Virus record (IMG/VR): IMGVR_UViG_3300032334_001433
Span: 96,001-160,000 of that record
DNA length: 64,000 nt
From: a virus
Taxonomy: Duplodnaviria > Caudoviricetes
Direction: 5' to 3' (one strand)
Shown here: positions 18,407-44,581 of the stretch, in pieces
How the letters are laid out: each line of letters begins with the position of its first letter
Numbering within the stretch: position 1 is the stretch's first letter
Translations under genes and position numbers: made by a program
Notes under the pieces: generated by a model
Databases searched by the model: none
What the model was told of the DNA's origin: nothing
The model's input: the letters and a program-made list of their open reading frames with translations, nothing else

Positions 18407-18822
18407 CCTTAGGTTTTAAAGTATTGAAGTTAAATAGTGGCGAAGATATAGTATGTAAAACAGATGAAGCAATAAATCTGAAAGACAATTTTAGTATTTT
18501 TATAAAAGATCCTTTGGTACTAAATCAAATAAGATCAAATTATGGAAGTGCAATAGTAGAATCATATACATTATCTCCTTGGTTCGCATTAGCTGAGGAA
18601 GAATTTTATGAAATTCCTGTAAGAAATATTGTAACATATGCATCCGCAAAAGAAGAACTCAAAGAAAATTATATTAAATATCTCGATGCTCGTAAAGAAG
18701 CAGAAGAAAACGCAGTTGATGTAACAAATGAATTAAATGATTCAAATTTAGAAAATGAAAGCACAGATGAAGAACACGATTACGGACATAGCAGATTTCG
18801 AAGAAGAAAAACTTTTCATTAA
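18403..18822 (+). CDS. Conserved hypothetical protein between uvsW and gp55
   Basis: KVLKLNSGEDIVC start and PW motif typical of the small gene at this position. Confidence 0.6.
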   Translation: MTLGFKVLKLNSGEDIVCKTDEAINLKDNFSIFIKDPLVLNQIRSNYGSAIVESYTLSPWFALAEEEFYEIPVRNIVTYASAKEELKENYIKYLDARKEAEENAVDVTNELNDSNLENESTDEEHDYGHSRFRRRKTFH

Positions 18823-19378
18823 GGAAAAGAAACCTTCGGTTACTGCACATTATGTAAATAATAAAGAATTTTTAGATGCATTAATAGCATATAAGGAACA
18901 AGTTGATGCTGCTAAAGAACGAGGCGAAGAACCGCCCGTTGTAACTAGATACATCGGCGAATGTTTTATAAAAATTGCTACACACCTTTCATACAAATCT
19001 AATTTTATTAATTATACCTTTAAAGATGATATGATCTCGGATGGTATTGAAAATTGTCTAACTGCAGTACAAAAATTTGATCCAACTAAATCTTCAAATC
19101 CATTTGCATATTATACTCAAATTATTTACTTTGCTTTTATTCGTAGAATACAAAAGGAAAAGAAACAACAGGCCACTAAGTATAAAATGATTGAGAATAT
19201 GGATATTGATTCTTTAATCTTGCAAGATCATGACAACGGCGAATTCAGCCACCAATTTTTGGATTACTTAAAACGGCAAATGGATAACATTGATATTGAG
19301 AAACGTAACATCACTATCCCGAAAAAGGTTAAAAAAGTTGAAATAGATTCGGATAATCCTCTTGACATGGATGACTGA
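18755..19378 (+). CDS. gp55: Late transcription sigma factor gp55
   Basis: HYVNNKEFL, YIGECFIKIA, NFINYTFKDDMISDGIENC, NPFAYYTQIIYFAFIRRIQKEKKQ; exact start uncertain. Confidence 0.95.
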   Translation: MKAQMKNTITDIADFEEEKLFIKEKKPSVTAHYVNNKEFLDALIAYKEQVDAAKERGEEPPVVTRYIGECFIKIATHLSYKSNFINYTFKDDMISDGIENCLTAVQKFDPTKSSNPFAYYTQIIYFAFIRRIQKEKKQQATKYKMIENMDIDSLILQDHDNGEFSHQFLDYLKRQMDNIDIEKRNITIPKKVKKVEIDSDNPLDMDD

Positions 19379-19391
19379 TTTACTATATAAT
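19362..19391 (+). promoter_or_regulatory. Sigma70-like promoter for the queE cluster
   Basis: TTGACA-18 nt-TATAAT overlapping the gp55 3' end. Confidence 0.65.
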
Positions 19392-19419
19392 ATATGTTAA
19401 TTTAATTATTGGAGTCTTG

Positions 19420-20277
19420 ATGGCAAAACTTAAAGTTGCAGAATTGTTTTATAGTATTCAAGGTGAAGGCCGTTATATGGGCGTACCTAGTGTGTTTCTT
19501 CGCACATTCGGTTGTAACTTTACCTGCAGTGGTTTTGGTATGCCTAAAGGGGAGTTTAGTCATGAAGTTGATTATATCGCGGCTGACGTACATAAGTTTC
19601 TTACCTATAAAGATTTACCTCTTGTTAGTACAGGGTGCGATTCTTACGCTAGCTGGGATCCTCGTTTTAAGCATCTCAGCCCTGTACTTGATACTGATAA
19701 CATTGCCGATTCAATTATGGATATACTTCCGTACAAGAAATGGGAAGACGAACATCTTGTAATTACAGGCGGCGAACCATTGCTTGGATGGCAAAGATCG
19801 TATCCAGATCTTCTAAACAATGAGAAGATGAAATCTTTAAAAGATATTACGTTTGAAACAAATGGTACTCAAACATTGTCATCCGAATTTAGACAGTATC
19901 TTCTTAATTGGTCTCTTGGTCGTAAAGACAGAGGATATAATGCACTAACATTTTCTGTTAGTCCAAAATTAAGTGTCAGTGGAGAAAAATGGGAAGAAGC
20001 AATCTGTCCAGATATTGTTGCATCATATCAAGACGTTGGATATACTTATCTTAAATTTGTAGTTGCAACTGAAGAAGATGCAGAAGAAGCAATGACTGCT
20101 ATTGATCTATATAAATCTGCAGGATTTAAAGGTCCTGTTTATTTGATGCCAGTAGGTGGTGTCGAAAGTGTTTATGCTATGAACAATCGAAAGGTTGCAG
20201 AAATGGCAATGAAGAACGGTCTTCGATATAGCGATCGTTTACAAGTGCCCTTATTTAAAAACGAATGGGGAACATAA
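19420..20277 (+). CDS. queE: 7-carboxy-7-deazaguanine synthase QueE (radical SAM)
   Basis: ELFYSIQGEG, FLRTFGCNFTC...GCDS, VITGGEP, FETNGT, SPKL, RLQVPLF; GGAG RBS favours the ATG at 19420. Confidence 0.9.
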   Translation: MAKLKVAELFYSIQGEGRYMGVPSVFLRTFGCNFTCSGFGMPKGEFSHEVDYIAADVHKFLTYKDLPLVSTGCDSYASWDPRFKHLSPVLDTDNIADSIMDILPYKKWEDEHLVITGGEPLLGWQRSYPDLLNNEKMKSLKDITFETNGTQTLSSEFRQYLLNWSLGRKDRGYNALTFSVSPKLSVSGEKWEEAICPDIVASYQDVGYTYLKFVVATEEDAEEAMTAIDLYKSAGFKGPVYLMPVGGVESVYAMNNRKVAEMAMKNGLRYSDRLQVPLFKNEWGT

Positions 20278-20341
20278 ATAATAATGTTACACAAAGGTAA
20301 CAAAATTTTCAATCATCATATCCGTGTAAGGAAGGATTCAA

Positions 20342-21031
20342 ATGTCATATAACAAGACAAAAACAGACCCAGAATTGGGGCAAAAAGTTCATCAGCATTT
20401 AGTTGCAATGGGAGTCGAGACTCCTACCCGATTAGATCCTACTACCCGATTAGATCTTGATCGTAAAACAAAGATTGAAATAATCGAGTCTCACTTTTCG
20501 GAAATTATGCGAGTGTTGGGCCTTGATTTAGAAGATGATAGTTTAATTGAAACACCAAAGCGTGTTGCTAAGATGTATGTTAACGAAATCTTTTGGGGGT
20601 TGGATTATGACGCATTTCCAAAATGTACTACAGTTAACAATAAGATGAAATACAACGAAATGGTTGTTGAACGCAATGTCAATGTCCAAAGTAATTGCGA
20701 ACATCATTTTGTAGTCATTGATGGATTGGCAACAGTTGCGTATGTTCCAAAGGATAAAGTTCTTGGACTAAGTAAAATTAATCGTATTGTAGAATACTTC
20801 AGTAAGCGTCCTCAGATTCAAGAACGTCTAACAGAACAAATTTATTATGCGTTGCAGTTTATTTTGGAAACAGATAATGTTGCAGTTATGATTGATGCTC
20901 AGCATTATTGTGTTAAGAGCCGAGGCGTAGAAGATACAGGCAGTTCTACCGTTACAAGTAAGCTAGGTGGAGGATTTAAAACAGATCCCTCTCTTAGAAA
21001 TGAATTCTTAAGCATCGCCCGTTCAAAATGA
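20342..21031 (+). CDS. folE: GTP cyclohydrolase I FolE
   Basis: [43 protein letters not shown]. Confidence 0.96.
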
Positions 21032-21537
21032 CTATAAACGTAATGGTTGATTTGGAGACAATGTCAACAAGATCAAATGCGGCAATTTGTTCCATTGGTG
21101 CAGTAAAATTTGAAGGGGATAAAATACTGGATACGTTTTACTGCACTATTGATATAAAGTCATGCAAAGAAGCAGGCCTGCATATTGCCAAGGATACTGT
21201 TGAATGGTGGTCAAAGCAAAACAAAGAAGCATTCCGAGAGTTAACAAAAAACAACATCTCACTACAAGAAGCACTAGACAAATTCGAAATTTGGTTTGGT
21301 CCAAAGAGTCTTCCTTTGTGGGGCAATGGTGCAGTATTTGATAATACTATTCTTGGAAATGCTTATTTCAATACAGGCAGAAAACCACCATGGCATCCAT
21401 GGGATGACCGATGCTATAGAACTGTTAAAGCATTATTTAAATGGATTCCTGCTGATGAACGGCAAGGAACATATCACAATGCATTGGATGACGCAATGCA
21501 TCAAACAAAACACTTAATTAAAATCTTGGGTAATTGA
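21028..21537 (+). CDS. DEDD-type 3'-5' exonuclease
   Basis: [38 protein letters not shown]. Confidence 0.85.
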
Positions 21538-21538
21538 T

Positions 21539-22906
21539 ATGAATATTTACAACAGGAGAATTGCTTTTTGTATTAGCGATCAGCATTTAATTCCATATGG
21601 TGGCATCGGACAATTTGCAAAATCCTTTGTAGAGACTTGTTCTGTTATTGGAATAAAAATTGATATTATATTGGATAAACCTGCATCCAATAAAGACTTT
21701 AGTGCATACCTTCAATCTAGAGGGGCTAATATTATTGTACCTAAAGAGCCACTTAGTTATAGTAAGCATGCTAAAACTTTTATGTTTGAGGATTCTTATA
21801 ACTTTGAAAAGATGATTAATTTTAGAGAATGCTTTATGTCTGCTCTAAATGATAATCTATATGATGTAGTTATTTGTAACACCGTAGAATCATTTCCCGC
21901 AATCTATTCATTGTCTATTCAAGATTCAGTACAAATTGTATACTATACTCATCACGAGAATCTTGTCTTTATGGATGAAAATACTCAGAAAAGTAAATTC
22001 TCAAATTCATTCAATGAATTTTTTATTAAATTGATGGATGTAAAAGGCATTTATATTGGTACACAAACACGTAGAAATGTTGCTGAGATTAAATTATCTG
22101 GTAAAGATGCATACTATACGCCAATACAAATGACAGAAAAAGATTTGCTTTCTCCTCATACAAAGCCAAGAGAAGGTGTACTATGGATTGGTCGTTGGGA
22201 ACCAAGAAAGAACCCTGAAGAATTTGTTCGCATGATTGCAGAAACAAAATTGCCTGCAAAAATTATTACAAATGATACTGGTGCGAAAAAATTTGAAGCA
22301 GCATTAAAAGAAATTAATGCAAAATTTGAAATTCGTTCAGAAATCTATGGTCAAGAAAAAGTTGATTTTATAACATCTGCCCGGGTTGCATATAACCCTG
22401 CAATACGAGAAAGCTTTGGTTTAGCATTTTATGAATGTATTGGGCATATGCCAACGGTTGCACTTAAAGGAATGTCTTGGTTAGAAAACTTTAATGGTAC
22501 GGATTTCTTTAGTGTAGATAAAAAAGATGTAAGTAGCACTATATTAAAATTATATGAACAATACAAAAGTCCATTTGATTGGTACAATACTGGCGCATTG
22601 GAGCGAGTTGTAAATATGGATTTAAGTGGTATTGCAGAATGGTTTAATTTATTTGATTTGTTTAAACCAACACAATCCAATTCTAGTAAAGCAAAAATTA
22701 ATGAATATGAAACGACGCAGTATAAAAAATACATAAACGATCTAAATAGGAAAGATTTATCTATTGATGATATCCGTTCTGTATTGACAAACAAGCACAA
22801 ATATAATATAATTTACACAGACAATCACACCTATCTATCAAAAGATAAAAATTTTGTTCCTGATGAACAAAATTCCTCAAGCACTTTAGAAAGTTTATTC
22901 AAATGA
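21539..22906 (+). CDS. GT-B (GT4-like) glycosyltransferase
   Basis: PYGGIGQF N-terminus, WIGRWEPRKNPE, ESFGLAFYE donor-binding motif. Confidence 0.75.
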   Translation: MNIYNRRIAFCISDQHLIPYGGIGQFAKSFVETCSVIGIKIDIILDKPASNKDFSAYLQSRGANIIVPKEPLSYSKHAKTFMFEDSYNFEKMINFRECFMSALNDNLYDVVICNTVESFPAIYSLSIQDSVQIVYYTHHENLVFMDENTQKSKFSNSFNEFFIKLMDVKGIYIGTQTRRNVAEIKLSGKDAYYTPIQMTEKDLLSPHTKPREGVLWIGRWEPRKNPEEFVRMIAETKLPAKIITNDTGAKKFEAALKEINAKFEIRSEIYGQEKVDFITSARVAYNPAIRESFGLAFYECIGHMPTVALKGMSWLENFNGTDFFSVDKKDVSSTILKLYEQYKSPFDWYNTGALERVVNMDLSGIAEWFNLFDLFKPTQSNSSKAKINEYETTQYKKYINDLNRKDLSIDDIRSVLTNKHKYNIIYTDNHTYLSKDKNFVPDEQNSSSTLESLFK

Positions 22907-24189
22907 GCAGACAAATGGAATATGTAATTTCTGGACCGGCGTACTTGCGTCTTGGTGCAGAACAATGTAATGATCCTGAAGTATTACAGATGATTAATGA
23001 CCTTATTGGTAAGACTGTTCATAATATGAATAATCATCAGTTCTCATTATTGTACAATGGGTTTACTGAAAAACAATTTGGTAAACGTCTACAAAAATTT
23101 AGACCGGCAATTAAAAATATCCATGCTGATTCTGGTGGTCTGCAGATTATTACTCGAGGTATTCAGAATTCCCCTGAGGTCCGTAATGGGGTTTATGAGA
23201 ATCAAGCATCGCATGCTGATATTGGAATGTCCTTTGATGAAATTCCGGTAATTATTACTAATGCAAGTGGTAAATCTGCAAAGCTTGATACTAAAGGTAG
23301 ATATTTTGATCGAGATAACTTTGCAAGTTATGCAAAGCAAACAGGACAAAATATTAAAGCACAGATTGAAAAATTTATTGAAATGAAAAGTGATTGCCGA
23401 CCCTTCGCAATCATTCAAGGTGCTTGTCACGAAACTTATGCAGAGTGGGCAAATATTTTGCTTGAAGAAATTACCGCACCATATCATGATCGTATTGGTG
23501 GCGTATCAATGGCATCTGCTGCATTAGGTACTGGTCAACTTGAAGATGTTAAACGAGCATTTTATGTTAAGGTAATGCCTTTTAAGAAACCATTTCATCT
23601 GCACATTCTAGGAGTTGGTGCTCTGCGTCGAATGCTTCCTTATATGGTGTTTAGTCAGACTGGAATGTATGAGAACATTGAAATCTCTTATGATTCTACA
23701 ACACATTCTATGTCATTGGATAATGGATTGTTTTATTTCTCATATAGTAAGAAAACACGACATGGGTATGGCGGGTCATCTGTAAAAATGGGTAGAGAAT
23801 ATTCAAATATCTATAGAACAGTTGTAGATGAAATCAATAGTGTTTGTGGTACAGAATATACCCCAGAAGAATATCATAAATTGATGAATATTGCAGTAGG
23901 CAAATATCTTGAGAATGGTGGCAAATTCATTGACATTATGAAAGCACGTCTATGTTTTATATTGACAAATGTTCATAATTTTACATTGGATGTCACAACT
24001 TTGTTAGAATCTAAAGATGAATTACTTAAATTCTGCAGAGATAAAGGTTGCGAAAATGAATATGCAACATTGTTTGAAGTTAAAGATATTGGCGACTTTT
24101 CTCATTGGGAAAAGCACGTTGGTAAATATATGGAATCAGAATCTGTGGGCCATCAGCCTAGGATGTCTTTAGAAGATTTATTTGCATAA
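22903..24189 (+). CDS. dpdA: TGT/DpdA-like guanine transglycosylase, divergent
   Basis: ADSGGLQ, IGMSFDE, IIQG, LHILGVG and SYDST match the TGT barrel; embedded among queE/folE/queD. DNA versus tRNA target not determinable from sequence. Confidence 0.7.
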   Translation: MSRQMEYVISGPAYLRLGAEQCNDPEVLQMINDLIGKTVHNMNNHQFSLLYNGFTEKQFGKRLQKFRPAIKNIHADSGGLQIITRGIQNSPEVRNGVYENQASHADIGMSFDEIPVIITNASGKSAKLDTKGRYFDRDNFASYAKQTGQNIKAQIEKFIEMKSDCRPFAIIQGACHETYAEWANILLEEITAPYHDRIGGVSMASAALGTGQLEDVKRAFYVKVMPFKKPFHLHILGVGALRRMLPYMVFSQTGMYENIEISYDSTTHSMSLDNGLFYFSYSKKTRHGYGGSSVKMGREYSNIYRTVVDEINSVCGTEYTPEEYHKLMNIAVGKYLENGGKFIDIMKARLCFILTNVHNFTLDVTTLLESKDELLKFCRDKGCENEYATLFEVKDIGDFSHWEKHVGKYMESESVGHQPRMSLEDLFA

Positions 24190-24199
24190 GGATTATATT

Positions 24200-24625
24200 A
24201 TGTCTATAATTAAAAAGAGTAGTTTTATTTGGGTTACCTTTCAAAAAGAAGGTATTCATCGTTATCCTGCAGCGGCAACTGACGTTAAGTTAGCTACACG
24301 CAGATTTGGTATACCTGAAGAACATTGGCTGGATGTTAGTTTTCTTGCGGATCCGCATCGGCACATTTTCCACTTTCGTGTCGAAATGGAAGTATTTCAT
24401 GATGACAGAGACGTAGAATTTATCCAAGCAAAAAGAATCATGGAGCGTTGGTATAATGATGGTACCCTGCAACTAGATTATAAATCATGTGAGATGATGG
24501 CAAATGATCTATATGATAAATTGATCGCAAAATGGCCAGGTAGGGATTATGTAGTTGAAGTATCCGAAGATGGTGAAAACGGATGCAGAATTCATTTTGA
24601 ATATATTAAAGATATAGATGTCTAA
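24200..24625 (+). CDS. QueD-like T-fold protein (DpdL-like candidate)
   Basis: FQKEGIH..., HRHIFHFRVEMEV, DRDVEFIQ, SCEMMA, VEVSEDGENG; second QueD paralogue in the cluster. AAGGA RBS favours the ATG at 24200 over the TTG at 24182. Confidence 0.65.
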   Translation: MSIIKKSSFIWVTFQKEGIHRYPAAATDVKLATRRFGIPEEHWLDVSFLADPHRHIFHFRVEMEVFHDDRDVEFIQAKRIMERWYNDGTLQLDYKSCEMMANDLYDKLIAKWPGRDYVVEVSEDGENGCRIHFEYIKDIDV

Positions 24626-25691
24626 AATTTTTATTGTAGATTTAGAATCGGTAGATACGCGATACACAGGACAATGGAAACGATATGTACCCAAATTACT
24701 TAAAAAGGAATGTCATGACATCGAAGTTATATGTGGGCCTGCTGATATTCCTAGTGCCACTACTCCTGGCGCCTTTCTTAATTTTGGTGGCACTAATATC
24801 TATAAGTCTGCACAAGTTGAGCAAATGGGCCGTTTATTTGTTAGTGGATCCGTTAATGCTAATGATCATTTTTTATTTACTGACGCTTGGCATCCTGGCA
24901 TTATTAACTTAAAATATATGAGTGAATTGTTGCAGATCCCTGTAACGATTCACGCACTATGGCATGCCGGCAGTTATGACCCTCAAGATTTTTTAGGTCG
25001 CCTTATCGGAGATGCTCAGTGGGTTAGACACGCCGAGCAAAGTTTCTTTCACGCTATTGACCATAACTATTTTGCTACAAATTTTCATATTGATTTGTTT
25101 GCTGATACATTTAGCGAAACAGTAGATGATGAGTGGAAATTAACTATGATTGAGCAAGGTAAGATTGTTCGTTCAGGTTGGCCAATGGAATATATGGTTG
25201 ATACATTAGATAATTATAATACTACAAAACAAGATATTATTTTATTCCCGCATCGTATTGCTCCTGAGAAACAAGTTGAAATTTTTAGAGATCTTGCAAA
25301 GCAATTGCCTCAATATGAATTTATTGTTTGTCAAGATAAACAATTGACTAAACATGAATATCATGAGTTATTGGGTAGAGCTAAAATTGTGTTCAGTGCT
25401 AACTTGCAGGAAACACTAGGCATTAGTTGCTACGAAGGCGCATTAGTTGATGCTATTCCTATGGTGCCAAATCGTTTGTCTTATAGTGAAATGTATAATG
25501 ATATATTCAAATATCCAAGTGAGTGGACAGAATCATTTGAAGCATACGAATTACATCGACAAGATTTATGCTACAAAATTATTCAATACATGAATAATCA
25601 CGATCAATATAAGTATCAAGTTCGTAAACAAGCATCAGACTTAACGGAAAAATTCTTTTCTGCTAATGTATTGACATCAATGTTTAAGTAA
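24618..25691 (+). CDS. GT-B fold glycosyltransferase associated with the deazaguanine cluster
   Basis: FPHRIAPEKQVEIF and LQETLGISCYEG (GT-B C-terminal motif), WHAGSYD. Confidence 0.7.
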   Translation: MSKIFIVDLESVDTRYTGQWKRYVPKLLKKECHDIEVICGPADIPSATTPGAFLNFGGTNIYKSAQVEQMGRLFVSGSVNANDHFLFTDAWHPGIINLKYMSELLQIPVTIHALWHAGSYDPQDFLGRLIGDAQWVRHAEQSFFHAIDHNYFATNFHIDLFADTFSETVDDEWKLTMIEQGKIVRSGWPMEYMVDTLDNYNTTKQDIILFPHRIAPEKQVEIFRDLAKQLPQYEFIVCQDKQLTKHEYHELLGRAKIVFSANLQETLGISCYEGALVDAIPMVPNRLSYSEMYNDIFKYPSEWTESFEAYELHRQDLCYKIIQYMNNHDQYKYQVRKQASDLTEKFFSANVLTSMFK

Positions 25692-25699
25692 TATATAAT
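25671..25699 (+). promoter_or_regulatory. Consensus sigma70 promoter upstream of queD
   Basis: Perfect TTGACA(25671-76)-17 nt-TATAAT(25694-99). Confidence 0.85.
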
Positions 25700-25704
25700 A
25701 CATC

Positions 25705-25770
25705 ACATAGCGGTCTATCGGCATCGTCCCGCTTTATAAATTCCGCCGCCTATGATTAACATAGGAGAAT
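25705..25770 (+). promoter_or_regulatory. Candidate cis-regulatory RNA (riboswitch-like) in queD 5' UTR
   Basis: AGCGG/CCGCT stem; RBS-occluding hairpin CCTATG-ATTAA-CATAGG; alternative CATAG-CGG / CCG-C-CTATG pairing; GC-rich island in an AT-rich genome. Confidence 0.55.
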
Positions 25771-25774
25771 AACC

Positions 25775-26248
25775 ATGGCAAAATACATTTCTACAAAAAC
25801 TTATAACCAGATTGGTCCCGTAGCATATAGACAATGGCGTGCAGATAGTCATTGTAATTTGATTCACGGATATGCACTCTCATTCCATTTAGAATTTGAA
25901 TGTGATACATTAGATGCTCGCAATTGGTGCATGGACTTCGGTGGATTAAAACCTCTTAAAGGTCTACTTGAGGATTGGTTTGACCACACATTATTAGTTG
26001 CTCAAGATGATCCAATGCGAGAGCATCTATTACATCTAGGCACATTAAAATTAGCAAAGATTACAGAAGTTGAAAAGACTGGATGTGAAGGTATTGCTGA
26101 TTTTCTTTATGAATATATTAACACAATTTTCTTACCCAACTATGGCGAAAAAGATCGTGTTTGGTGTTGCAAAGTACAAGTACGAGAAACAGATGCTAAC
26201 ATGGCAATGCGTGTTGGACATAGAGAAGATAACGAATTTAAAGATTGA
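25775..26248 (+). CDS. queD: 6-carboxy-5,6,7,8-tetrahydropterin synthase QueD
   Basis: SHCNLIHGY, MDFGGLK, FDHTLLV, GCEGIA, VRET. Confidence 0.92.
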   Translation: MAKYISTKTYNQIGPVAYRQWRADSHCNLIHGYALSFHLEFECDTLDARNWCMDFGGLKPLKGLLEDWFDHTLLVAQDDPMREHLLHLGTLKLAKITEVEKTGCEGIADFLYEYINTIFLPNYGEKDRVWCCKVQVRETDANMAMRVGHREDNEFKD

Positions 26249-26250
26249 AT

Positions 26251-27306
26251 ATGAAGATTTGTTTGTTGGGAGATACACACTTTGGAGTTAGAAATGACTC
26301 CAAAGCATTTCATGCGTATTATGAAAAATTCTATACCAATGTACTATTCCCATATCTAAAAGATAACAAGATTGATACTGTTATTCAATTGGGCGATCTA
26401 TTTGATCGAAGGAAGTATATTAATTTTAATTCGCTTGCAGAGTCAAGACGTTATTTCTTTGATCCAATGGAAGCGAATGGAATTAAATTAATTACATTAG
26501 TTGGCAATCATGATATATTCTGGAAAGAAACTCTTAGTGTAAATTCTCCAGATTTATTGTTACGAGATTATGGTAACATTACTATTTTCCAAGAGCCAGG
26601 CCAAATGCAATTTGATGGTGTTCAATTTGATATTATTCCTTGGATTTGTAAAGACAACGAAACACAAATTGCAGCATTCATGGATGCAAGCACCTCTGAT
26701 TATTGTATCGGACATTTTGAAATTTCCGGATTTCAAATGATGAAAGGTATTGATAACCATGAAGGATTTGATCGTAGTTATTTTAAACAATATAAACACG
26801 TATTAAGTGGGCATTTTCATACTAAATCTAGTGAAGGAAATATCTCATATCTTGGCACTCCTTATGAATTAACATGGAATGATGAAAGCGATCCAAAAGG
26901 ATTTTTCATCTTTGATACTGAAGATCATTCTTTAGAGTTTATACAAAATCCATATACTATTTTTACAAAGTATTATTATAACGACGAAACAATGGATCCT
27001 GATGGTATTGATACTGCATCTTTTGAATCTCAACATATAAAAATTGTTGTCGTTAAAAAAAGAGACTTCCATAAGTTTGATAAATTTATAGAACGTATCT
27101 ACAGACGAGACCCTCTTGAAGTTAAGATTATTGAAGACTTTTCTGAGTTTGAATCTGAGGCATTAGATGATGCTATTGATTTAGAAGATACTATGACATT
27201 GCTTACAGGGTATGTTGATAGTATTGAAACAGACGCAGACAAAGAACGATTGAAGACACTGCTTAAGACATTATATGTCGAAGCACAACACTACGACGAA
27301 GCATGA
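26251..27306 (+). CDS. gp47: Recombination nuclease subunit gp47 (Mre11/SbcD-like)
   Basis: GDTHFG, LGDLFDRR, GNHD, GHFE, SGHFH, YLGTPYELTW. Confidence 0.95.
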   Translation: MKICLLGDTHFGVRNDSKAFHAYYEKFYTNVLFPYLKDNKIDTVIQLGDLFDRRKYINFNSLAESRRYFFDPMEANGIKLITLVGNHDIFWKETLSVNSPDLLLRDYGNITIFQEPGQMQFDGVQFDIIPWICKDNETQIAAFMDASTSDYCIGHFEISGFQMMKGIDNHEGFDRSYFKQYKHVLSGHFHTKSSEGNISYLGTPYELTWNDESDPKGFFIFDTEDHSLEFIQNPYTIFTKYYYNDETMDPDGIDTASFESQHIKIVVVKKRDFHKFDKFIERIYRRDPLEVKIIEDFSEFESEALDDAIDLEDTMTLLTGYVDSIETDADKERLKTLLKTLYVEAQHYDEA

Positions 27307-29021
27307 GTATAAGATTTACAAAAATACGATGGAAAAATTTCTTATCAACCGGCGGACAATTTACAGAAATAAATTTTGAAGCATCTCCTTCTACTTTAAT
27401 TGTTGGTGAGAATGGTGCTGGTAAAAGTACAATTCTTGATGCTATTTGTTTTGGTCTTTTTAATAAACCATTCCGCAGTATTAATAAACCGCAATTAATG
27501 AATACTATCAACGGCAAGAATCTTGTTGTTGAGGTTGAATTTTCTATTGGCAAAAAGGATTACCGAATAGTTCGGGGCATGAAACCGAATGTATTTGAAA
27601 TCTATTGCGATGGTACGATTCTAAATCAGGATGCAGCATCAAGAGATTATCAGAAATACTTAGAAGAAAGTATTTTAAAATTAAATTATAAATCTTTTAC
27701 TCAGATTGTAATTTTGGGATCTGCATCATTTACGCCCTTTATGCAATTGTCTTTAGGGTATAGAAGAGAAATTATTGAGGATATTCTTGATATCCAAATT
27801 TTCTCTGTTATGAATACTGTATTAAAGGATAAGATCAATTCTTTAAAAGATTCAATTAAAGATTTAGATGGCAAGATTGAAATAGGAAAGCACAAAGTAA
27901 AAGTCCAACAAGGATACATTCTTCAATTGGAAGAAGATAAAAAGAAACGTGAAAACGATGTCCAAACTAAAATTGACGAATCTAATTTAGAAATTGCATC
28001 GTTATCTAAACAATTGGAAGAGCTACAAGATGTATATGCTGTTCATGAACTAAGTATTTCTGATTCCGACGAACAAACAAAAAAGAAAACAGAATTAAAT
28101 ACCCTGTATAAAAATCTTACTGATAGAATTAAAAAAGCTAAAAACGAAATTAATTTCTACGAAGAACATGATAATTGCCCAACCTGTAATCAAAATATTT
28201 CTGATGATTTAAAGACGCAAACTGTCGAGAAGCATACTCATAAGATTGAGGAAGTTACATCTGCATTAGATCAGATCAATACAAAAATTACAGAAGTAGA
28301 AACTCGTCTTACTGAAATTGAAGATATTAAAAAGGCAATGTCTGAGGTTCAAGTATCAATTTTAAGAGTAAACAATTCAATGATTGCTTCTCAGAATTAT
28401 ATTAAAAAGTTGATGGCGGACTTGGAACAAAAGGATGATACTTTAACATCATTAACTAATGAAAAGTTAAATCTAAAGTCAATGGCTAAGGATATCGTTG
28501 ATTTAGTTTCTGATAGGTCAAAAATCAATGAGGATAAATTTTATCATGAAGCAGCGGGGTCTTTATTAAAAGACACCGGCATTAAAACTAAGATCATTCG
28601 ACAATATCTTCCAGTAATAAATAAGTTGGTAAATAAGTACTTGACGGCAATGGATTTCTTTGTCCACTTTGAACTAGATGAATCGTTTAATGAAACAATT
28701 AAATCTAGACATAGAGATGAATTTAGTTATGCATCTTTTAGTGAAGGTGAAAAGCAAAGAATTGATTTGGCGTTATTATTTACATGGCGAACAATTGCAA
28801 AGATGAAGAATAGCGCAAGTACTAATCTATTACTATTAGATGAAGTATTTGATTCCTCATTAGATGCAAATGGCACAGATTATGTTATGAATTTGTTGAA
28901 TACAATAAGTGATGATACAAATGTGTTTGTAATATCGCACAAAGGCGATCAATTAATTGATAAATTTAAATCAGTAATTAAATTTCAAAAGTATCAAAAT
29001 TTTAGTAGAATAGTAGTATGA
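27303..29021 (+). CDS. gp46: Recombination ATPase subunit gp46 (Rad50/SbcC-like)
   Basis: WKNFLSTG, GENGAGKST, CPTC zinc hook, FSEGEK signature, LLDEVFD. Confidence 0.96.
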   Translation: MSIRFTKIRWKNFLSTGGQFTEINFEASPSTLIVGENGAGKSTILDAICFGLFNKPFRSINKPQLMNTINGKNLVVEVEFSIGKKDYRIVRGMKPNVFEIYCDGTILNQDAASRDYQKYLEESILKLNYKSFTQIVILGSASFTPFMQLSLGYRREIIEDILDIQIFSVMNTVLKDKINSLKDSIKDLDGKIEIGKHKVKVQQGYILQLEEDKKKRENDVQTKIDESNLEIASLSKQLEELQDVYAVHELSISDSDEQTKKKTELNTLYKNLTDRIKKAKNEINFYEEHDNCPTCNQNISDDLKTQTVEKHTHKIEEVTSALDQINTKITEVETRLTEIEDIKKAMSEVQVSILRVNNSMIASQNYIKKLMADLEQKDDTLTSLTNEKLNLKSMAKDIVDLVSDRSKINEDKFYHEAAGSLLKDTGIKTKIIRQYLPVINKLVNKYLTAMDFFVHFELDESFNETIKSRHRDEFSYASFSEGEKQRIDLALLFTWRTIAKMKNSASTNLLLLDEVFDSSLDANGTDYVMNLLNTISDDTNVFVISHKGDQLIDKFKSVIKFQKYQNFSRIVV

Positions 29022-29593
29022 TTATATTAAGAAAAGACAAATTAACTTTAGTTGAACCTACTGCGGAGGTTATGACAAAAACTCCAAATCTTTTTGATTT
29101 TAAGAAGGATGGCAAAAGTGCTACTAATGTTTCAAATGTTCTATTTGAAAGAATGAAACAATTGGGAGGCGTTGGTCTAAGTGCTAACCAAGTAGGACTT
29201 GATATGCGAGTATTTGTAATGGGTTTAGGTGATACAAAAATTGCAATATTCAATCCAGAAATTGTTGAATATAATGTTAAAGAAGAAAATTATAACGAAG
29301 GCTGTTTATCATATCCAGGTATAATGCTAAATATTAAACGCCCAACAACCGTTAAAGTTAAATATCAAAATGAAAAAGGCGAAGTTGTTGAGAATGAATT
29401 CAAAGGACTAACAGCTAGAATTTTCCAACATGAATTTGATCATATGAATGGAACAGACTTTACACATCGAGTTTCTAAATTTAAATTAGATTTTGCAAAA
29501 AAGAAATTTGAAAATAAACGTAAAAAGATAATTAAAAAATACGCAGTTAAAACAATGGTAGAGGCACTAAATGAGCACAAAGATTCCAACTGA
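29018..29593 (+). CDS. def: Peptide deformylase
   Basis: GVGLSANQVG, EGCLS, HEFDH motifs all intact. Confidence 0.93.
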   Translation: MIILRKDKLTLVEPTAEVMTKTPNLFDFKKDGKSATNVSNVLFERMKQLGGVGLSANQVGLDMRVFVMGLGDTKIAIFNPEIVEYNVKEENYNEGCLSYPGIMLNIKRPTTVKVKYQNEKGEVVENEFKGLTARIFQHEFDHMNGTDFTHRVSKFKLDFAKKKFENKRKKIIKKYAVKTMVEALNEHKDSN

Positions 29594-33555: not shown

Positions 33556-34566
33556 ATGAAAAAAGCATTGATTACAGGAATCACAGGACAAGATGGTTCC
33601 TATCTAGCAGAACTTCTATTGGAAAAAGGATACGAAGTTCATGGTATTATTAGACGTAGTTCTTCGATTAATACTTCTAGAATTGACCATATATTCAATC
33701 ATCCAAATTTAGAATTACATTATGGAGATGTAACTGATTCATTGTCATTAATGAATGTTCTAAAAAAACATTCTCCAGATGAAATCTATAATTTAGCTGC
33801 CCAAAGTCATGTTAAAGTTTCTTTTGAAACTCCTGAATACACAGGTATGGTTGATGCAATGGGTACGTTAAAAATATTGGAATCTGTAAGATTGCTTAAT
33901 CTAGATAAAAAGACAAAAATTTATCAAGCATCTACTTCTGAACTATTTGGATTGGTTCAAGAAATCCCACAAAAAGAAACAACCCCGTTCTATCCTAGGT
34001 CCCCATACGGCGTTGCAAAAATGTATGCTTATTGGATTGTAAAAAATTACAGAGAGTCGTATAATATGTTTGCTTGCTCGGGCATACTATTTAATCACGA
34101 ATCTCCTCGCCGAGGACATAATTTTGTAACTAAGAAAATTGTAAATGCTTTAAAGGCAATTAGTGAAGGTAAACAAGAGTGTTTGTATCTTGGCAATCTA
34201 AATGCTATGCGAGATTGGGGACATGCTAAAGATTATGTCAACGCAATGTGGATGATGTTGCAACAGGATACACCGGAAGATTATGTTATTGCAACTGGAG
34301 AACAATTCTCAGTAAGAGAATTTGTTGAACATTGTGCCCCATATTTTGGTTTAAAAATTCGTTGGGAAGGTGACGGAGTTAATGAAGTTGGCATTAATAA
34401 AGTATCTAAAAAAGTAATAATCCGAGTAGATAAAAAATATTTCCGACCAGCAGAAGTTGAAACATTATTAGGTGATGCATCGAAGGCAAGAATACAATTA
34501 GGATGGAAACCTACGCAATCATTTGATGATTTGGTTGAAGATATGTGTATGAATTTTGATGAATAA
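33556..34566 (+). CDS. gmd: GDP-mannose 4,6-dehydratase
   Basis: [55 protein letters not shown]. Confidence 0.96.
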
Positions 34567-34575
34567 GAAAGTTAT

Positions 34576-35445
34576 ATGAATAAAAAATTAAGTATAGGGT
34601 TTACTGATACCCATCCGCATCTAGCAACATTCTTTATGGACTTATTGTCTACACGGTATGATGTAGAAATTAACAATGATAATCCTGATTTTTTGTTATT
34701 TGGTGATAGAAATTTTGGTGAGAATAATTTAAAATATTCTAAAGATGTTGTTAAGATTTTCTATACAGGAGAAAATCAAAGACCAGAAGATTATGATTGT
34801 AACTATGCAATAAGTTTTGATCATAACTTTGAACCTTGGCATTATAGATTGCCTTTATATGTTGTCTATATGTGGGCATTAGAACATATACACAAAACAA
34901 AGTATGATTTTAACTATATCTTTAATCCCGAAATTAAAGAGAAAACCGACTTCTGTTCTTTTGTTGTAAGTAATCCTAATTGCCAAGAACGTAACAATTT
35001 CTTTAAAATGTTACACAAAGAAAAGCACGTTGATAGTGCAGGCAAACTATACAAAAATATAGATGTCAATTTGGAAGGCGAAGCTGCTAAAATTGAATTT
35101 TTATCTACACGAAAATTTAATATTTGTTTTGAACCATATTCTCATCCAGGATATGTTACCGAAAAAATACTACACGCATTCTATGCAGGAACAATTCCAA
35201 TATACTGGGGAAGTGAAACAATCAGTTCAGATTTTAATCCAAACGCATTTATTGATGTAAATGATTTTAGTAGTTATGAAGAAGCAATTAAATTTATTAT
35301 GTACTTGGATAGTAACGATGAGTTGTACAATATAATGCTTAATGCGCCAAAATTTAAAAACGGAATTCCTCCGTCATACATCATGCTTGATAATTTCTTA
35401 AATTGGTTTGATGCGGTAGTTTATAATAAAATTTTACAACGATGA
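34576..35445 (+). CDS. Alpha-1,3-fucosyltransferase-like (GT10)
   Basis: YTGEN, FCSFVVSNP, KFNICFE...GYVTEKI...AGTIPIYWG fucosyltransferase motif. Confidence 0.85.
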   Translation: MNKKLSIGFTDTHPHLATFFMDLLSTRYDVEINNDNPDFLLFGDRNFGENNLKYSKDVVKIFYTGENQRPEDYDCNYAISFDHNFEPWHYRLPLYVVYMWALEHIHKTKYDFNYIFNPEIKEKTDFCSFVVSNPNCQERNNFFKMLHKEKHVDSAGKLYKNIDVNLEGEAAKIEFLSTRKFNICFEPYSHPGYVTEKILHAFYAGTIPIYWGSETISSDFNPNAFIDVNDFSSYEEAIKFIMYLDSNDELYNIMLNAPKFKNGIPPSYIMLDNFLNWFDAVVYNKILQR

Positions 35446-36155
35446 ATATACAGACATTTATTTTCAATTGGCGCGGACAATATGAAAAGACAAAAGAAAA
35501 GCAAAAGCAACTGAGTGCCATTGGGGTCGTGCCTGTCGTTATTAATAGTGACGACAATCACCGTGAGGACGATCCTAATTGGCACAACATTGGCGAGGAA
35601 AGTTATTTCACTGCACAGTTCTTAAAAGCATTGGAATTATTTACTGGCGATGTAATGTTTCACATACAAGCGGATGCATCATATAGTAATTGGGCAGAAA
35701 TTTATCAAGGAGCAAGAGATTGCTTTGATACTTACAATTGGGGAATTTATGCACCAAATGTGGATTATACATTTTATAATTCTGCAAGAACTGATCTTAC
35801 AAGTTTTGATTTAGATGAACCTAATTTAAAAATGGTTGCAAATACAGATTGTACTTGTTGGTTTATTCATAAAGATATTCTTGAAGATGCAAAAAATAGA
35901 AATATAAATTTTGCGCCATATAAAATGGGTTGGAGTTTTGATATAATTTTTACCGCAATTAGTTATATTAATAAACGACCAGTCATTCGAGATTATTCAT
36001 TTACTATTGACCATCCGCAAGGAACCAATTATAATAAAGATCAGGCCGAGATTGAGATGGTTCAACTATATCAATCACTTACACCCGATGTACAAGAAGC
36101 ATTTAGATATATTAAAGGCGATAAAGAAAAATTAGCGCAATACTATGCAAATTGA
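35442..36155 (+). CDS. Hypothetical, probable GT-A glycosyltransferase
   Basis: VVINSDD, FHIQADAS, IYAPN; context in sugar island. Confidence 0.45.
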   Translation: MNIQTFIFNWRGQYEKTKEKQKQLSAIGVVPVVINSDDNHREDDPNWHNIGEESYFTAQFLKALELFTGDVMFHIQADASYSNWAEIYQGARDCFDTYNWGIYAPNVDYTFYNSARTDLTSFDLDEPNLKMVANTDCTCWFIHKDILEDAKNRNINFAPYKMGWSFDIIFTAISYINKRPVIRDYSFTIDHPQGTNYNKDQAEIEMVQLYQSLTPDVQEAFRYIKGDKEKLAQYYAN

Positions 36156-37047
36156 TTATTATAAAATAAATGATCTATTAATAGAAAAACTGGACAACAA
36201 TGTTCCGTTTTCTTTGTTAAGAATAGACAATACTGCAGGGTATGTTCTTGATTGCATCTCTCGTGGAATTATTCCCGATAGACAACATTACAATGAATAT
36301 ACTTTAGTTGAAGGCGGTGTGCCTGACAATATGGATTACGTATTTAAAAAGTTATGGCCAGATACTTTAAGCGTAATGAAAGAGTGTGATATTTTAGGAT
36401 TTGTTGATGTGTCGGGGGATATTAAACGATCAAACTTTATAAAGCAATTTGAGGATAAGCCAACATTCTTTCATAAAGATACTGCAGTATTAGATCCCGG
36501 AGGATTATTAGGATATTATTCTGAGTATAATAAACTATCTGTACCTTGGACACAGCATCTAAAAGGTAAAAAAGTTCTTGTAGTATCAACGCACGCAGAA
36601 TCTATAAAATATCAATGGAATCACCTTGATAGGATTTGGGGCAAAGACAAAGAAAAAATTGTACCCTTTGAATTAGTAGATTGTATTAAAACACCATATC
36701 ATCCTCTTGCAGATGATAGACAAATTCCTGGCTGTGATACATTCCATAGCATAGTTGAGCATACAAAGAAATTAATTGATAGTTATGACTATGATGTTTT
36801 GCTAACAGGCGTAACAACTCAATCTCCGTTTTATGCTGAGCATGCTAAGCAACAAGGTAAAGTAGGAATACAGACAGGCGGAACAATACAATTATTTTTT
36901 GGTATTGTTGGATCACGTTGGCTAAAATCGCCTTCGTATAAAGAATGGATTCCTATGTTTAATGAATATTGGATATACCCATTGGATGAGGATAAAGCAC
37001 AAAGAGTGGTTCATCCTAACTTAGAAACTAATTACGCATATTGGTAA
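36145..37047 (+). CDS. Hypothetical sugar-cluster protein (GT-D-like)
   Basis: LKGKKVLVVS...KVGIQTGGTIQLFFG C-terminal pattern; context. Confidence 0.45.
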   Translation: MQIDYYKINDLLIEKLDNNVPFSLLRIDNTAGYVLDCISRGIIPDRQHYNEYTLVEGGVPDNMDYVFKKLWPDTLSVMKECDILGFVDVSGDIKRSNFIKQFEDKPTFFHKDTAVLDPGGLLGYYSEYNKLSVPWTQHLKGKKVLVVSTHAESIKYQWNHLDRIWGKDKEKIVPFELVDCIKTPYHPLADDRQIPGCDTFHSIVEHTKKLIDSYDYDVLLTGVTTQSPFYAEHAKQQGKVGIQTGGTIQLFFGIVGSRWLKSPSYKEWIPMFNEYWIYPLDEDKAQRVVHPNLETNYAYW

Positions 37048-37050
37048 ATT

Positions 37051-38373
37051 ATGAATAAAGATGATATTTTAATTGGCATTGCAGAATTTGTCAGAAATAA
37101 ACGCAATGAAGAAATTTGGATTCCCGGTAAAGATTTTGTTAAGTATGCAGGTCCGTTTTTTGACGAACATGAAATACTTGCAGCAGTAAGTACCTTATTA
37201 AATGGTTGGCTTGTTATGGGCGACCAGTCTGTAAAATTTGAAAAAGAATTCCCAAAACAATTTGGAAAGAATCATGGAATTTTAACAAATTCTGGATCTA
37301 GTTCTAACTTGTTAATGATGTCTACTCTTACATCTAAGCGTGGATATAATTTGCCAAAGGGAACAAAGGTATTGATGCCTATTGCAGGATTTCCTACAAC
37401 ATTAAATCCCACCTTACAACTTGGATTTGAGCCTGTATTTTTAGACATTGAATTAGATACATTAAATCTTGATCTAACAAGAGCAGAAGAACTAATTAAA
37501 AAACATAATATCAGAGTAATTACATTTGCTCATGTATTAGGTAATCCACCTAATATGGATTGGGTGATGGAATTAGTTAAACGGTATGATATGATTCTTT
37601 TGGAAGATTGCTGCGATGCTTTAGGATCTACATATGACGGAAATCCATTAGGATCTTATGGTGAGATGGCATCTTGTTCATTCTATCCTGCCCACCACAT
37701 GACAATGGGCGAAGGTGGGTTTGTTGCCTGCAAGACATATGAAACAGAAGTCATTGCTAGATCATTTAGAGAATGGGGTCGCGGATGTTATTGTGTTGGA
37801 CCTGAAGCAAATAAATTAAAATGCGGTTCTTGTGGCATACGGTTTAAAGAATGGATTCCTGAGATGCCGGGAGAAATTTTTGACCACAAATATGTATACG
37901 ATGAAATCGGTTACAATTTAAAACCAATTGAATTGCAAGGTGCAATGGGGTTAGTTCAATTGGACAAGTTAGAAACAATACACGAGTTGCGAAAACGCAA
38001 TTATAATTTATTGTTTGATATCTATAGTAAGTATGAAGAATATTTCCACTTGCCAAGAGCCCAGGCAAAGAGCGATCCTAGTTGGTTTGCATTTCCGCTA
38101 ACAATTCGCAAGGGTGTTCCTTTTACTCGTAGCGATATTGTGGATTATCTTGAAGAACATCTAATTCAGACACGGCCGTATTTTGCTGGTAATATTATGC
38201 TTCAACCTGCATATAGTCATCTAATGAATCCTGCAGATGCAAGAGATAATTTTCCAATTGCTACAATGACAATGACTAATACTTATTTCCATGGAACAAG
38301 CCCAGTAATTACTCCTGAACAAATTTCATATATAGGTAAAGTAGTTGATGGTTTTATGAGTTTATTTGTATGA
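37051..38373 (+). CDS. rfbH: NDP-4-keto-6-deoxyhexose 3-dehydratase (RfbH/E1)
   Basis: NSGSSSNL, EDCCDALG, SFYPAHHMTMGEGG (His in place of the aminotransferase Lys), Cys cluster GRGCYC...CGSC. Confidence 0.88.
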   Translation: MNKDDILIGIAEFVRNKRNEEIWIPGKDFVKYAGPFFDEHEILAAVSTLLNGWLVMGDQSVKFEKEFPKQFGKNHGILTNSGSSSNLLMMSTLTSKRGYNLPKGTKVLMPIAGFPTTLNPTLQLGFEPVFLDIELDTLNLDLTRAEELIKKHNIRVITFAHVLGNPPNMDWVMELVKRYDMILLEDCCDALGSTYDGNPLGSYGEMASCSFYPAHHMTMGEGGFVACKTYETEVIARSFREWGRGCYCVGPEANKLKCGSCGIRFKEWIPEMPGEIFDHKYVYDEIGYNLKPIELQGAMGLVQLDKLETIHELRKRNYNLLFDIYSKYEEYFHLPRAQAKSDPSWFAFPLTIRKGVPFTRSDIVDYLEEHLIQTRPYFAGNIMLQPAYSHLMNPADARDNFPIATMTMTNTYFHGTSPVITPEQISYIGKVVDGFMSLFV

Positions 38374-39539
38374 AAAATTTAAGCAAAGTCGCCTCAAATA
38401 TTGATGGACAGCCAATGTTCAAATATTTGGATAAGGCAAAAAAATTAGAAGCCGATGGAAAATCTATGATCCATATGGAAATAGGTGACCCTGATTTTAA
38501 CACTCCGGATAATATAATTAATGCCGCAATAAATTCATTACAGAATGGCGGCACACATTATTGCAGTAGTTTTGGATTGCCTGATTTTAGACAAACTATT
38601 GTAGATGCTACTAAACGAAGTAGAGGGTTTGCTCCTGATCTAGATCAAGTATTAGTTACACCTGGTGCAAATATAGGAATGTTCTATGCAATTTATTGTT
38701 TAGTTGATCCCGGATATGAAGTGATTGTTCCTGATCCTGGATTTGCAACATATTACAGCACAATTAAAATGTGTGGTGCAATTCCAGTAAGAGTTCCTTT
38801 AAAGGAAGAAAATAAATTTAGAATGAATCCGGAGGATGTTGCAAATGCAATTACAGATAAAACTAGATTAATTATTATAAACAGCCCGCACAACCCAACC
38901 GGTAGTGTAATGACTCCTGAAGAAATTAAAGCAATATATGACTTAGCAAAAGAAAAAGACATATATCTTTATAGCGATGAAATTTATAGTAGAATGAACT
39001 ATAGTACATTTAGTAGTCCAGGAATATACGATCATTGTAAAGAACACGTTATTGTGAGCAATGGTTTTAGTAAGGCATTTGCAATGACTGGATGGCGATT
39101 AGGTACTATGATTGGTCCCAGTGTTGTTATTGAAAGAATGGCTGCATTACTACAAACAACAAGTAGTTGCGTTAGCCCATTTATACAAGCAGCAGGAAAA
39201 GAAGCTATTGACGGCCCGCAAGATTCTGTTTATAATATGATGGAAGAATATAAATCAAGGCGAGATTTATTGGTGGATGGTCTAAATAAAATTCCAGGAT
39301 TTGATTGTTTGACTCCAGGTGGCGCATTTTACGTATTTCCAAATATTACAAAAACAGGATTAACTTCTGAAGAAGTATGCAACGCATTACTTGATGCAGG
39401 AGTAGTAACATTACCTGGAGATTGTTTTGGTGAATATGGTAAAGGATATCTACGTCTTTGTTATGCTACTAGTAAAAACGATATAAATGAAGCATTGAAA
39501 CGTATTAATGATTGGGCAACAAATCATGCGAGTTTGTGA
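38370..39539 (+). CDS. Class I/II PLP-dependent aminotransferase
   Basis: IGDPDF, NSPHNPTG, SDEIY, GFSKAFAMTGWRLG, GAFY. Confidence 0.9.
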   Translation: MKNLSKVASNIDGQPMFKYLDKAKKLEADGKSMIHMEIGDPDFNTPDNIINAAINSLQNGGTHYCSSFGLPDFRQTIVDATKRSRGFAPDLDQVLVTPGANIGMFYAIYCLVDPGYEVIVPDPGFATYYSTIKMCGAIPVRVPLKEENKFRMNPEDVANAITDKTRLIIINSPHNPTGSVMTPEEIKAIYDLAKEKDIYLYSDEIYSRMNYSTFSSPGIYDHCKEHVIVSNGFSKAFAMTGWRLGTMIGPSVVIERMAALLQTTSSCVSPFIQAAGKEAIDGPQDSVYNMMEEYKSRRDLLVDGLNKIPGFDCLTPGGAFYVFPNITKTGLTSEEVCNALLDAGVVTLPGDCFGEYGKGYLRLCYATSKNDINEALKRINDWATNHASL

Positions 39540-43787: not shown

Positions 43788-43791
43788 AATA

Positions 43792-44580: not shown

Positions 44581-44581
44581 T

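Follow-up and report, generated by a model that had tools for sequence, protein, structure and literature searches.

The stretch of DNA analysed here (the window, 64,000 nucleotides) comprises bases 96001–160000 of the complete 202,665-bp virus record IMGVR_UViG_3300032334_001433, which has direct terminal repeats. It contains a cluster of eight genes predicted to make a 7-deazaguanine and to place it into DNA, two of which are interspersed genes for putative GT-B glycosyltransferases (GTs) (Table 1). All eight are real open reading frames (ORFs) on the plus strand and are found at the positions where an earlier reading of the sequence (the original prediction) had placed them; the gene calls made there were all correct, judged by ORFs and family matches. 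The same gene order was found again in 60 loci of the IMG/VR collection, and in comparison to two relatives all eight genes show dN/dS ratios of 0.00–0.11 (dS approximately 0.4–0.9). Therefore, the cluster has not come together by chance. It is flanked by genes for an UvsW helicase and a sigma-like factor on one side and by the gp47/gp46 (SbcCD) genes on the other.

The close packing of the genes was also described correctly before: five junctions either overlap by 4–8 nt or stand one base apart. Overlaps of 4 nt exist between folE and the exonuclease gene, between GT4a and the DpdA3 gene and between queD and sbcD, the exonuclease and GT4a genes are 1 nt apart, and dpdL overlaps the GT4b gene by 8 nt. 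At the junction between the DpdA3 gene and dpdL a TTG start would give an overlap of 8 nt and an ATG start a gap of 10 nt; the ATG at 24200 is likely the true start. The two gaps of the cluster measure 64 nt (before folE) and 83 nt (before queD).

Table 1. Genes and promoter elements of the cluster. Positions refer to the window; alternative start positions are separated by a slash.
Feature	Position	Strand	Description and family matches
QueE	19417/19420-20277	+	radical-SAM 7-carboxy-7-deazaguanine (CDG) synthase; phrog_2076 E 5e-54
FolE	20342-21031	+	GTP cyclohydrolase I; PF01227 E 2e-62; NF006824 325 bits (cut-off 202)
Rv2179c-like DEDD 3'-5' exonuclease	21028-21537	+	PF16473 E 5e-46; phrog_255 exonuclease
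GT4a	21539-22906	+	455-aa GT-B (GT4-type) glycosyltransferase, C-terminal extension of ~85 aa
DpdA3-like DNA guanine transglycosylase (TGT superfamily), ORF5	22903-24189	+	428 aa; phrog_10773 E 1e-97
DpdL, ORF6	24182/24200-24625	+	QueD-like T-fold, proposed CDG decarboxylase; phrog_17812 E 1e-30; LADPHRHIF
GT4b	24618-25691	+	357-aa GT-B (GT4-type) glycosyltransferase, variable slot after DpdL
QueD	25775-26248	+	6-carboxytetrahydropterin synthase; PF01242 E 3e-15; phrog_2389 E 1e-40
sigma-70 promoter 1	19362..19391	+	TTGACA-18-TATAAT, 12/12 consensus; in front of queE
sigma-70 promoter 2	22784..22812	+	12/12 consensus; within the 3' end of GT4a, ~90 nt before DpdA3
sigma-70 promoter 3	25671..25699	+	12/12 consensus; before queD

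FolE, QueD and QueE are established as the families which convert GTP via dihydroneopterin triphosphate (H2NTP) and 6-carboxytetrahydropterin (CPH4) to CDG, and all three are encoded together here. FolE scores above its NCBIfam cut-off and QueD above its Pfam cut-off; QueE is matched by several NCBIfam QueE models below their cut-offs and weakly by the Pfam Radical_SAM domain. Its sequence is 96% identical in the relatives L009 and L057 (dN/dS 0.06), and QueD is even 100% identical in these two at a dS of approximately 0.4. The QueD motif reads CxxxHGY instead of CxxxHGH. That the enzyme might be defective for this reason was rejected, since CxxxHGY is invariant in eight out of eight aligned phage QueDs including that of phiST. 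The lack of queC and queF, previously noticed for the window, holds for the rest of the genome as well: in the complete 202,665 bp neither QueC (PF06508) nor Gat-QueC was found, and the sole match to QueF (PF14489) was a 14-bit echo inside FolE. Also a ThyA-type hydroxymethylase (PF00303, acting on dCMP or dUMP) was searched for in the complete genome and none was found; thus no alternative DNA acceptor for the two GTs is in sight.

Residues 55–63 of ORF6 fit LxxxHRHxF, the published signature by which DpdL was defined; DpdL has been proposed to decarboxylate CDG (Cui, Hutinet et al., NAR 2023, PMC10516641). The protein is 34% identical to the DpdL of phage phiST and 51% to that of phage ACP17, and together with eleven DpdL proteins it shares the sequence blocks EG-H-YP, HRH-F, KSCE and SEDGEN. 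A sequence-profile search with DpdL against solved structures gave nothing significant, and by hhalign ORF6 is a distant profile match to QueD (probability 66%, E 6e-5). Signature and profile match are both in agreement with the QueD-like DpdL which the original prediction had named. In the DNA of phiST all G is replaced by 2'-deoxy-7-deazaguanosine (dDG; PMC10516641). The DpdL signature in ORF6 therefore points to a QueC-less pathway of the phiST type as the core, with dDG as the expected product. For the deazaguanine core alone, we consider it likely that it belongs to this type of system. Between the two bases proposed initially, CDG and 7-deazaguanine (DG), we favour the latter, since there is a DpdL here and since dDG is what phiST makes with this core.

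The likeness to phiST comprises FolE, QueD with the CxxxHGY motif, QueE, DpdL, the lack of QueC, a distant transglycosylase of the TGT family and an adjoining DEDD exonuclease. Unlike the cluster in the window with its two GT-B genes, that of phiST has no glycosyltransferase and contains instead a MazG-like pyrophosphohydrolase and a kinase-like ATPase; relatives of the window cluster add the UDP-glucose 4-epimerase GalE and a phosphoribosyltransferase (PRT). As in phiST, there are also Vibrio phages with DpdL and without a GT, and plain dDG is found in a Vibrio phage called VP1 too (2025 preprint). Thus, the module apparently functions already without a GT, which seems to be an optional addition to it.

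The DpdA3-like ORF5 is over its full length 33–38% identical to the DpdL-adjacent proteins of ACP17 (33%) and BUCT-ZZ01, and it has an identity of about 30% to phage proteins which carry the annotation queuine tRNA-ribosyltransferase. It matches the Tgt model TIGR00430 weakly, far under the cut-off (E 6e-5), and its language-model neighbours have the domains PF01702 (TGT) and PF23859 (DpdA). Its motifs D76-S-G-G-L-Q and Y263-D264-S are invariant, and the dN/dS ratio of ORF5 is 0.016.

For GT4a and GT4b, AlphaFold models were compared with solved structures by Foldseek, which gave E-values of 1e-8 to 1e-11 against GT4 enzymes for both. The GT4a model (pLDDT 95.8) resembles retaining enzymes of this family most, namely PglH/WlaC (6eji), MshA, sucrose-phosphate synthase and PimA. 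The GT4b model (pLDDT 80.9, pTM 0.81) matches BshA, MshA, GlgM, PimB' and the GT of phage HY126 (9ir0). An alignment of 74 diverse members of the GT4a family showed H138 and E291 to be invariant, with G218, E221, K224 and E299 nearly so; these residues and the donor motif GRWEPRKNP include the EX7E motif. Among 39 GT4b sequences R213, K218, Q264 and E273 are invariant. GT4a scores 16.6 bits with the Pfam model Glycos_transf_1, under the cut-off of 26.4, and GT4b has no match to it. Since both miss the cut-off, their membership in GT4 rests on fold and motifs. Judged by these models and alignments, both are GT4-type GT-B enzymes which have kept the catalytic motif. Both are under strong purifying selection; the dN/dS ratios against two relatives, 0.06 for GT4a and 0.07–0.11 for GT4b, resemble those of the pathway genes. 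The GT4a family is compact (248 representatives when clustered at 50%); for GT4b, over 8,000 homologues were found in metagenomes, the best 120 of which are 72–99% identical. For the C-terminal extension of GT4a (residues 365–455) no informative neighbours and no PHROG or Pfam match were found. The top 50 fold matches include neither of the T4 glucosyltransferases, AGT and BGT, and a QTMAN-like protein (queuosine mannosyltransferase) is not among the top 30 Swiss-Prot fold matches of GT4b.

Conservation of the gene neighbourhood connects these GTs with the deazaguanine genes. The comparative set consists of the 60 IMG/VR loci, which were found by their DpdA3; each of the following counts refers to the loci long enough for the position in question. 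The shared order is QueE-(PRT)-FolE-Exo-GT4a-DpdA3-DpdL-slot-QueD-SbcD. Of 59 loci, 54 have GT4a immediately in front of DpdA3. In this phage its stop overlaps the DpdA3 start, and it is probably translationally coupled to the transglycosylase. DpdL is present in 49 out of 49 loci and is followed by a GT in all of them. That slot is occupied by the 357-aa GT4b in this phage and in three near relatives only. In 45 loci it is filled by a different GT of 389–400 aa, 20–29% identical to GT4b, together with a GalE, so that GalE is found beside the slot GT in 45 of 49 loci. The GalE scores above the equivalog cut-off of TIGR01179, and the slot GT of one relative (L048) passes the Pfam Glycos_transf_1 cut-off with 28.0 bits. 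A dedicated GalE adjoining the slot GT argues for genuine sugar-nucleotide chemistry within the module. In most relatives the slot GT, having a GalE at its side, probably uses UDP-galactose. The sugar in this phage is probably a different one, as its slot holds a GT without GalE of the type found in the phages PA5oct and Phosso.

Five cultured phages of different hosts, ACP17 (Acidovorax), PA5oct (Pseudomonas), X1 (Xanthomonas), BUCT-ZZ01 (Synechococcus) and Phosso (Sinorhizobium), likewise have DpdL, a GT of the GT4b family and QueE and/or FolE clustered; the GTs are annotated in their records as hypothetical protein or plain glycosyltransferase. Identity to GT4b is 51% in Phosso, 46% in PA5oct, 38% in ACP17, 26% in X1 and 23% in BUCT-ZZ01, and the DpdA3 proteins of ACP17, X1 and BUCT-ZZ01 are 30–38% identical to that of the window. 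The GT4b homologue is located between DpdA3 and DpdL in ACP17, between a divergent DpdA and DpdL in PA5oct, and adjoining DpdA3 in X1. BUCT-ZZ01 is the only one of the five which shares both GTs, with GT4a (41%) immediately upstream of DpdA3. The divergent DpdA-like protein of PA5oct, EST35_0316 (540 aa, L003:5382-7004), contains ADSGGFQ and aligns to DpdA3 by hhalign with a probability of 84%. Its gene immediately precedes those of the GT4b homologue and DpdL, and all three are annotated as hypothetical in the PA5oct record. PA5oct DNA resists enzymes with G in their recognition site and is attacked by END nucleases which sense hypermodified DNA, as well as by a variant specific for modified G; the modified G is chemically undefined (PMC12191111).

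The association of GT4a with the transglycosylase goes as far as gene fusion. In two distant relatives a GT4a-family domain is fused to a DpdA-like domain (P0190 and P0216, 844 and 865 aa; L072:6040-8574 and L076:3175-5772). The C-terminal half of the fusion has the motif DSGGFQ and is 30% identical to the PA5oct DpdA-like protein (E 5e-42). Furthermore, two QueC-type clusters without DpdL (L077:3323-8350 and L074:880-6541) have GT4a-family genes beside DpdA3 (31–32% identical). Since GT4a is found beside DpdA3 in QueC-type clusters too, it tracks the transglycosylase and not the substituent at C7. Synteny, the GalE partner, the GT::DpdA fusions and the recurrence in cultured phages together suggest that the GTs belong to the deazaguanine module. 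These observations also back the initial proposal that the two GTs may add sugars.

Combining these results, we propose that the phage uses a module, probably expressed early, which would swap G in its own DNA for 7-deazaguanine and then most likely add a sugar. FolE, QueD and QueE would convert GTP to CDG. In the absence of QueC, DpdL would take off the carboxyl group of CDG, yielding DG, and the DpdA3-like transglycosylase would exchange G in DNA for DG; both steps are suggested by homology with phiST. GT4a and GT4b would then glycosylate the deazaguanine from nucleoside diphosphate (NDP)-sugars, probably after its insertion, a step to which comparative genomics points. We give about an even chance to this last possibility, that dDG is further glycosylated by the two GTs and an undescribed sugar-bearing purine results in the DNA. 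The resulting dDG would bear one or two sugars and would be a counterpart of the glucosylated 5-hydroxymethylcytosine (hmC) of T-even phages. One candidate for the attachment site is C7, an electron-rich, nucleophilic pyrrole carbon which faces the major groove and would give a C-glycoside. The other candidate is the 2-amino group, as in huimycin and dapiramicin, where a sugar would crowd the minor groove at every G. The likely benefit would be a shielding of dDG-DNA from defences which recognise modified G, on top of the protection against ordinary restriction.

Two known systems resemble parts of this scheme. In the glucosylation of hmC by the T4 alpha- and beta-glucosyltransferases, too, a non-canonical base is made first and decorated in DNA by GT-B enzymes afterwards, and arabinosyl-5-hydroxycytosine systems follow the same logic (PMC13326640). 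The GT content varies among relatives, as an arms race would lead one to expect, and the exchange of GTs in the slot resembles the diversification of GTs in T-even phages; moreover, the HY126 enzyme among the fold neighbours of GT4b is a phage DNA GT. In contrast to the T-even system, the base would here be a purine without a hydroxyl handle, the GTs are GT4-like and no hydroxymethylase is encoded. For this last reason we rejected the possibility that the GTs serve hydroxymethyl-pyrimidines. In the biosynthesis of huimycin, HuiG puts a sugar on the 2-amino group of an aglycone of the 7-deazaguanine type (PMC7439116), and dapiramicins likewise bear a 2-amino sugar. GTs of the huimycin family are annotated with a GT4-type Pfam domain (bioRxiv 10.64898/2026.04.15.718813). 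As in the scheme proposed here, a FolE-QueD-QueE-derived scaffold is glycosylated by a GT with GT4 domain, at a 2-amino handle which DG possesses as well. However, huimycin and dapiramicin are secondary metabolites made from free preQ0, with QueC and an O-methyltransferase and without DpdA, and are a chemical precedent only. In the literature we found no paper on glycosylated deazaguanine in DNA, nor one which ties these GTs to dpd genes.

A number of points weigh against glycosylated dDG as the product. The argument for glycosylation is drawn from comparative genomics. DG has no hydroxyl and so presents no obvious acceptor for the usual O-glycosylation by GT4 enzymes. It would be unusual for a retaining enzyme of the GT4 type to form C- or N-glycosides, and polymerases should be impeded if each G had a bulky 2-amino adduct. 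The nearest solved structures of both GTs use small soluble acceptors (BshA, MshA, tetrahydrobiopterin glucosyltransferase), and with isoelectric points of 5.4 and 6.5 the two proteins are acidic to neutral. Given a base without hydroxyl, GTs which are not basic and relatives with small acceptors, the acceptor could therefore be the free base, an intermediate or something unrelated. Doubts extend to the core as well. The decarboxylase activity of DpdL is a prediction from the literature which was never reconstituted, and co-expression of dpdL and dpdA yielded no dDG (PMC10516641). A thin profile of ORF5 gave no significant match to phiST gp042, and a sequence-profile search of ORF5 against solved structures, TGT structures included, gave none either. 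A complex prediction for DpdA3 and GT4a (score 0.00) speaks neither for nor against binding.

Some of these points would be accommodated if the DNA contained plain dDG, as in phiST, and the GTs modified something else, such as a protein of phage or host, a small metabolite or a precursor of the host envelope, merely sharing the early transcription units. The nearest GT4 structures, with their small-molecule or lipid-linked acceptors, are in favour of this, as are the acidic to neutral character of both GTs and the missing hydroxyl, and a separate 16-kb sugar island of the genome with further GTs shows that there is glycosylation in this phage which does not concern DNA. Nevertheless we judge this unlikely, for it leaves unexplained why the GTs are wedged among DpdA3, DpdL and QueD in 49–54 loci, why they recur in unrelated cultured phages and why GT4a is fused to a DpdA-like protein; furthermore, the GT-free phages of the phiST type mark the GT as an optional part of the deazaguanine module and not as a general early gene. 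The fusion would fit substrate channelling, and thus an involvement of the GTs before insertion: they might act on the free deazapurine or an intermediate, or as required partners of DpdA3 and DpdL, and the sugar would enter the DNA or be removed, leaving possibly dDG as the final base. That HuiG glycosylates a free aglycone at the 2-amino group (PMC7439116) and that the fold neighbours have small acceptors is compatible with this idea. So is the finding that dpdL and dpdA of ACP17 gave no dDG in E. coli, where the authors suspect missing enzymes (PMC10516641), as the GT4b homologue of ACP17 sits exactly between these two genes. But GT-free phiST makes dDG in vivo and its genes failed in E. 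coli too, so a GT is not generally required, and the pockets of TGT-family enzymes are tight around the base, so that the site would have to be remodelled to admit a base with a sugar. We therefore regard action before insertion as rather improbable.

A replacement before replication, at the nucleotide level, with the DpdA3-like and GT-B proteins acting on nucleotides instead of DNA, appears very improbable to us. It could draw on the PRT of xanthine/guanine type which is encoded in the cluster of 16 out of 54 relatives (for instance L017:4921-5358, L062:3644-4066 and L001:4748-5209) and of BUCT-ZZ01, on the MazG-like pyrophosphohydrolase and the kinase-like ATPase of the phiST cluster, and on the consideration that it is easier to imagine how every G is replaced if this happens ahead of replication. 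Yet no PRT was found anywhere in the genome of this phage, and the enzyme is equally well explained as guanine salvage. Most simply read, the PRT of the relatives would salvage the guanine released by the exchange to GMP, from where it would reach FolE again. Also the published view is a post-replicative insertion by DpdA (PMC10516641).

If the dDG is indeed glycosylated in the DNA, the results might be generalized. Tentatively, and with somewhat less than an even chance, we suggest that there is a large and environmentally abundant group of phages with glycosylated 7-deazaguanine DNA, produced by GT4-type enzymes which work together with DpdA and are sometimes fused to it, in which an exchangeable slot for a GT, with or without GalE, would diversify the sugar and the glycosidic bond would be of an unprecedented C- or N-type. 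To our knowledge, the DNA bases with an attached sugar that have been chemically defined are pyrimidines without exception (glucosyl- and arabinosyl-hmC, glycosylated 5-hydroxycytosine and base J). A glycosylated deazapurine would be a new class of DNA base and the first purine with a sugar to be known from a genome. It would call for new enzymology, there being no hydroxyl on the base, and it could explain the failed reconstitution of DpdA3 and DpdL. The question is also relevant for phage therapy and for phage defence: what the modified G is matters for PA5oct-like phages, END nucleases and Dag glycosylases alike. In bacterial islands the GT::DpdA fusion would, if this is true, mark a new modification-based system for the discrimination of self and non-self.

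The source DNA has a GC content of approximately 34%. The recombination nuclease shares 50% identity with its counterpart in the Methylophilales phage Melnitz and 48% with the cyanomyovirus enzymes; therefore, the DNA comes from an uncultured aquatic T4-like myovirus of the lake type. In a phage collection no near-identical DNA was found. Perfect TTGACA-N17/18-TATAAT elements occur three times on the coding strand within 8.1 kb, compared to a rough chance expectation of about 0.01, and hence the cluster is likely transcribed early by the host polymerase in three units. An Rfam scan of positions 18500–27000 matched no family and no known riboswitch, the preQ1 types included.

The DEDD exonuclease is present in 44 of 54 related loci. 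Also in phiST a DEDDh exonuclease flanks the cluster, next to QueD, and an Rv2179c-like gene occurs in L077. The enzyme may be a conserved passenger or an accessory of the module. L077 has in addition a myo-inositol-1-phosphate synthase, and L074 two tandem GT4a-like genes and a phosphoribosyltransferase. The GT4a::DpdA-like fusions of L072 and L076 are each followed by a conserved protein of approximately 530 aa. Both contigs resemble mobile or defence islands of bacteria, with helix-turn-helix regulators, an Mrr_cat nuclease, an integrase, Cap8 and an AAA ATPase, and near the fusions no genes for deazaguanine synthesis were found. These islands may constitute a cellular modification/restriction system.

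Further downstream in the window lies a large island with genes for sugar-nucleotide metabolism (33556–47754). It encodes a GDP-mannose 4,6-dehydratase, a GT10 fucosyltransferase, a DegT and a class I/II aminotransferase, a split thiamine pyrophosphate-dependent enzyme similar to acetolactate synthase, three further epimerases/reductases of the short-chain dehydrogenase/reductase type, a PfkB kinase, a Zn-dehydrogenase and an E1/transketolase-like fusion. The island could supply unusual NDP-sugars. Finally, a peptide deformylase gene (PF01327, E 4e-36) is located just past gp47/gp46 at 29018–29593, and likewise in Rhizobium phage RHph_I1_18 (L007).

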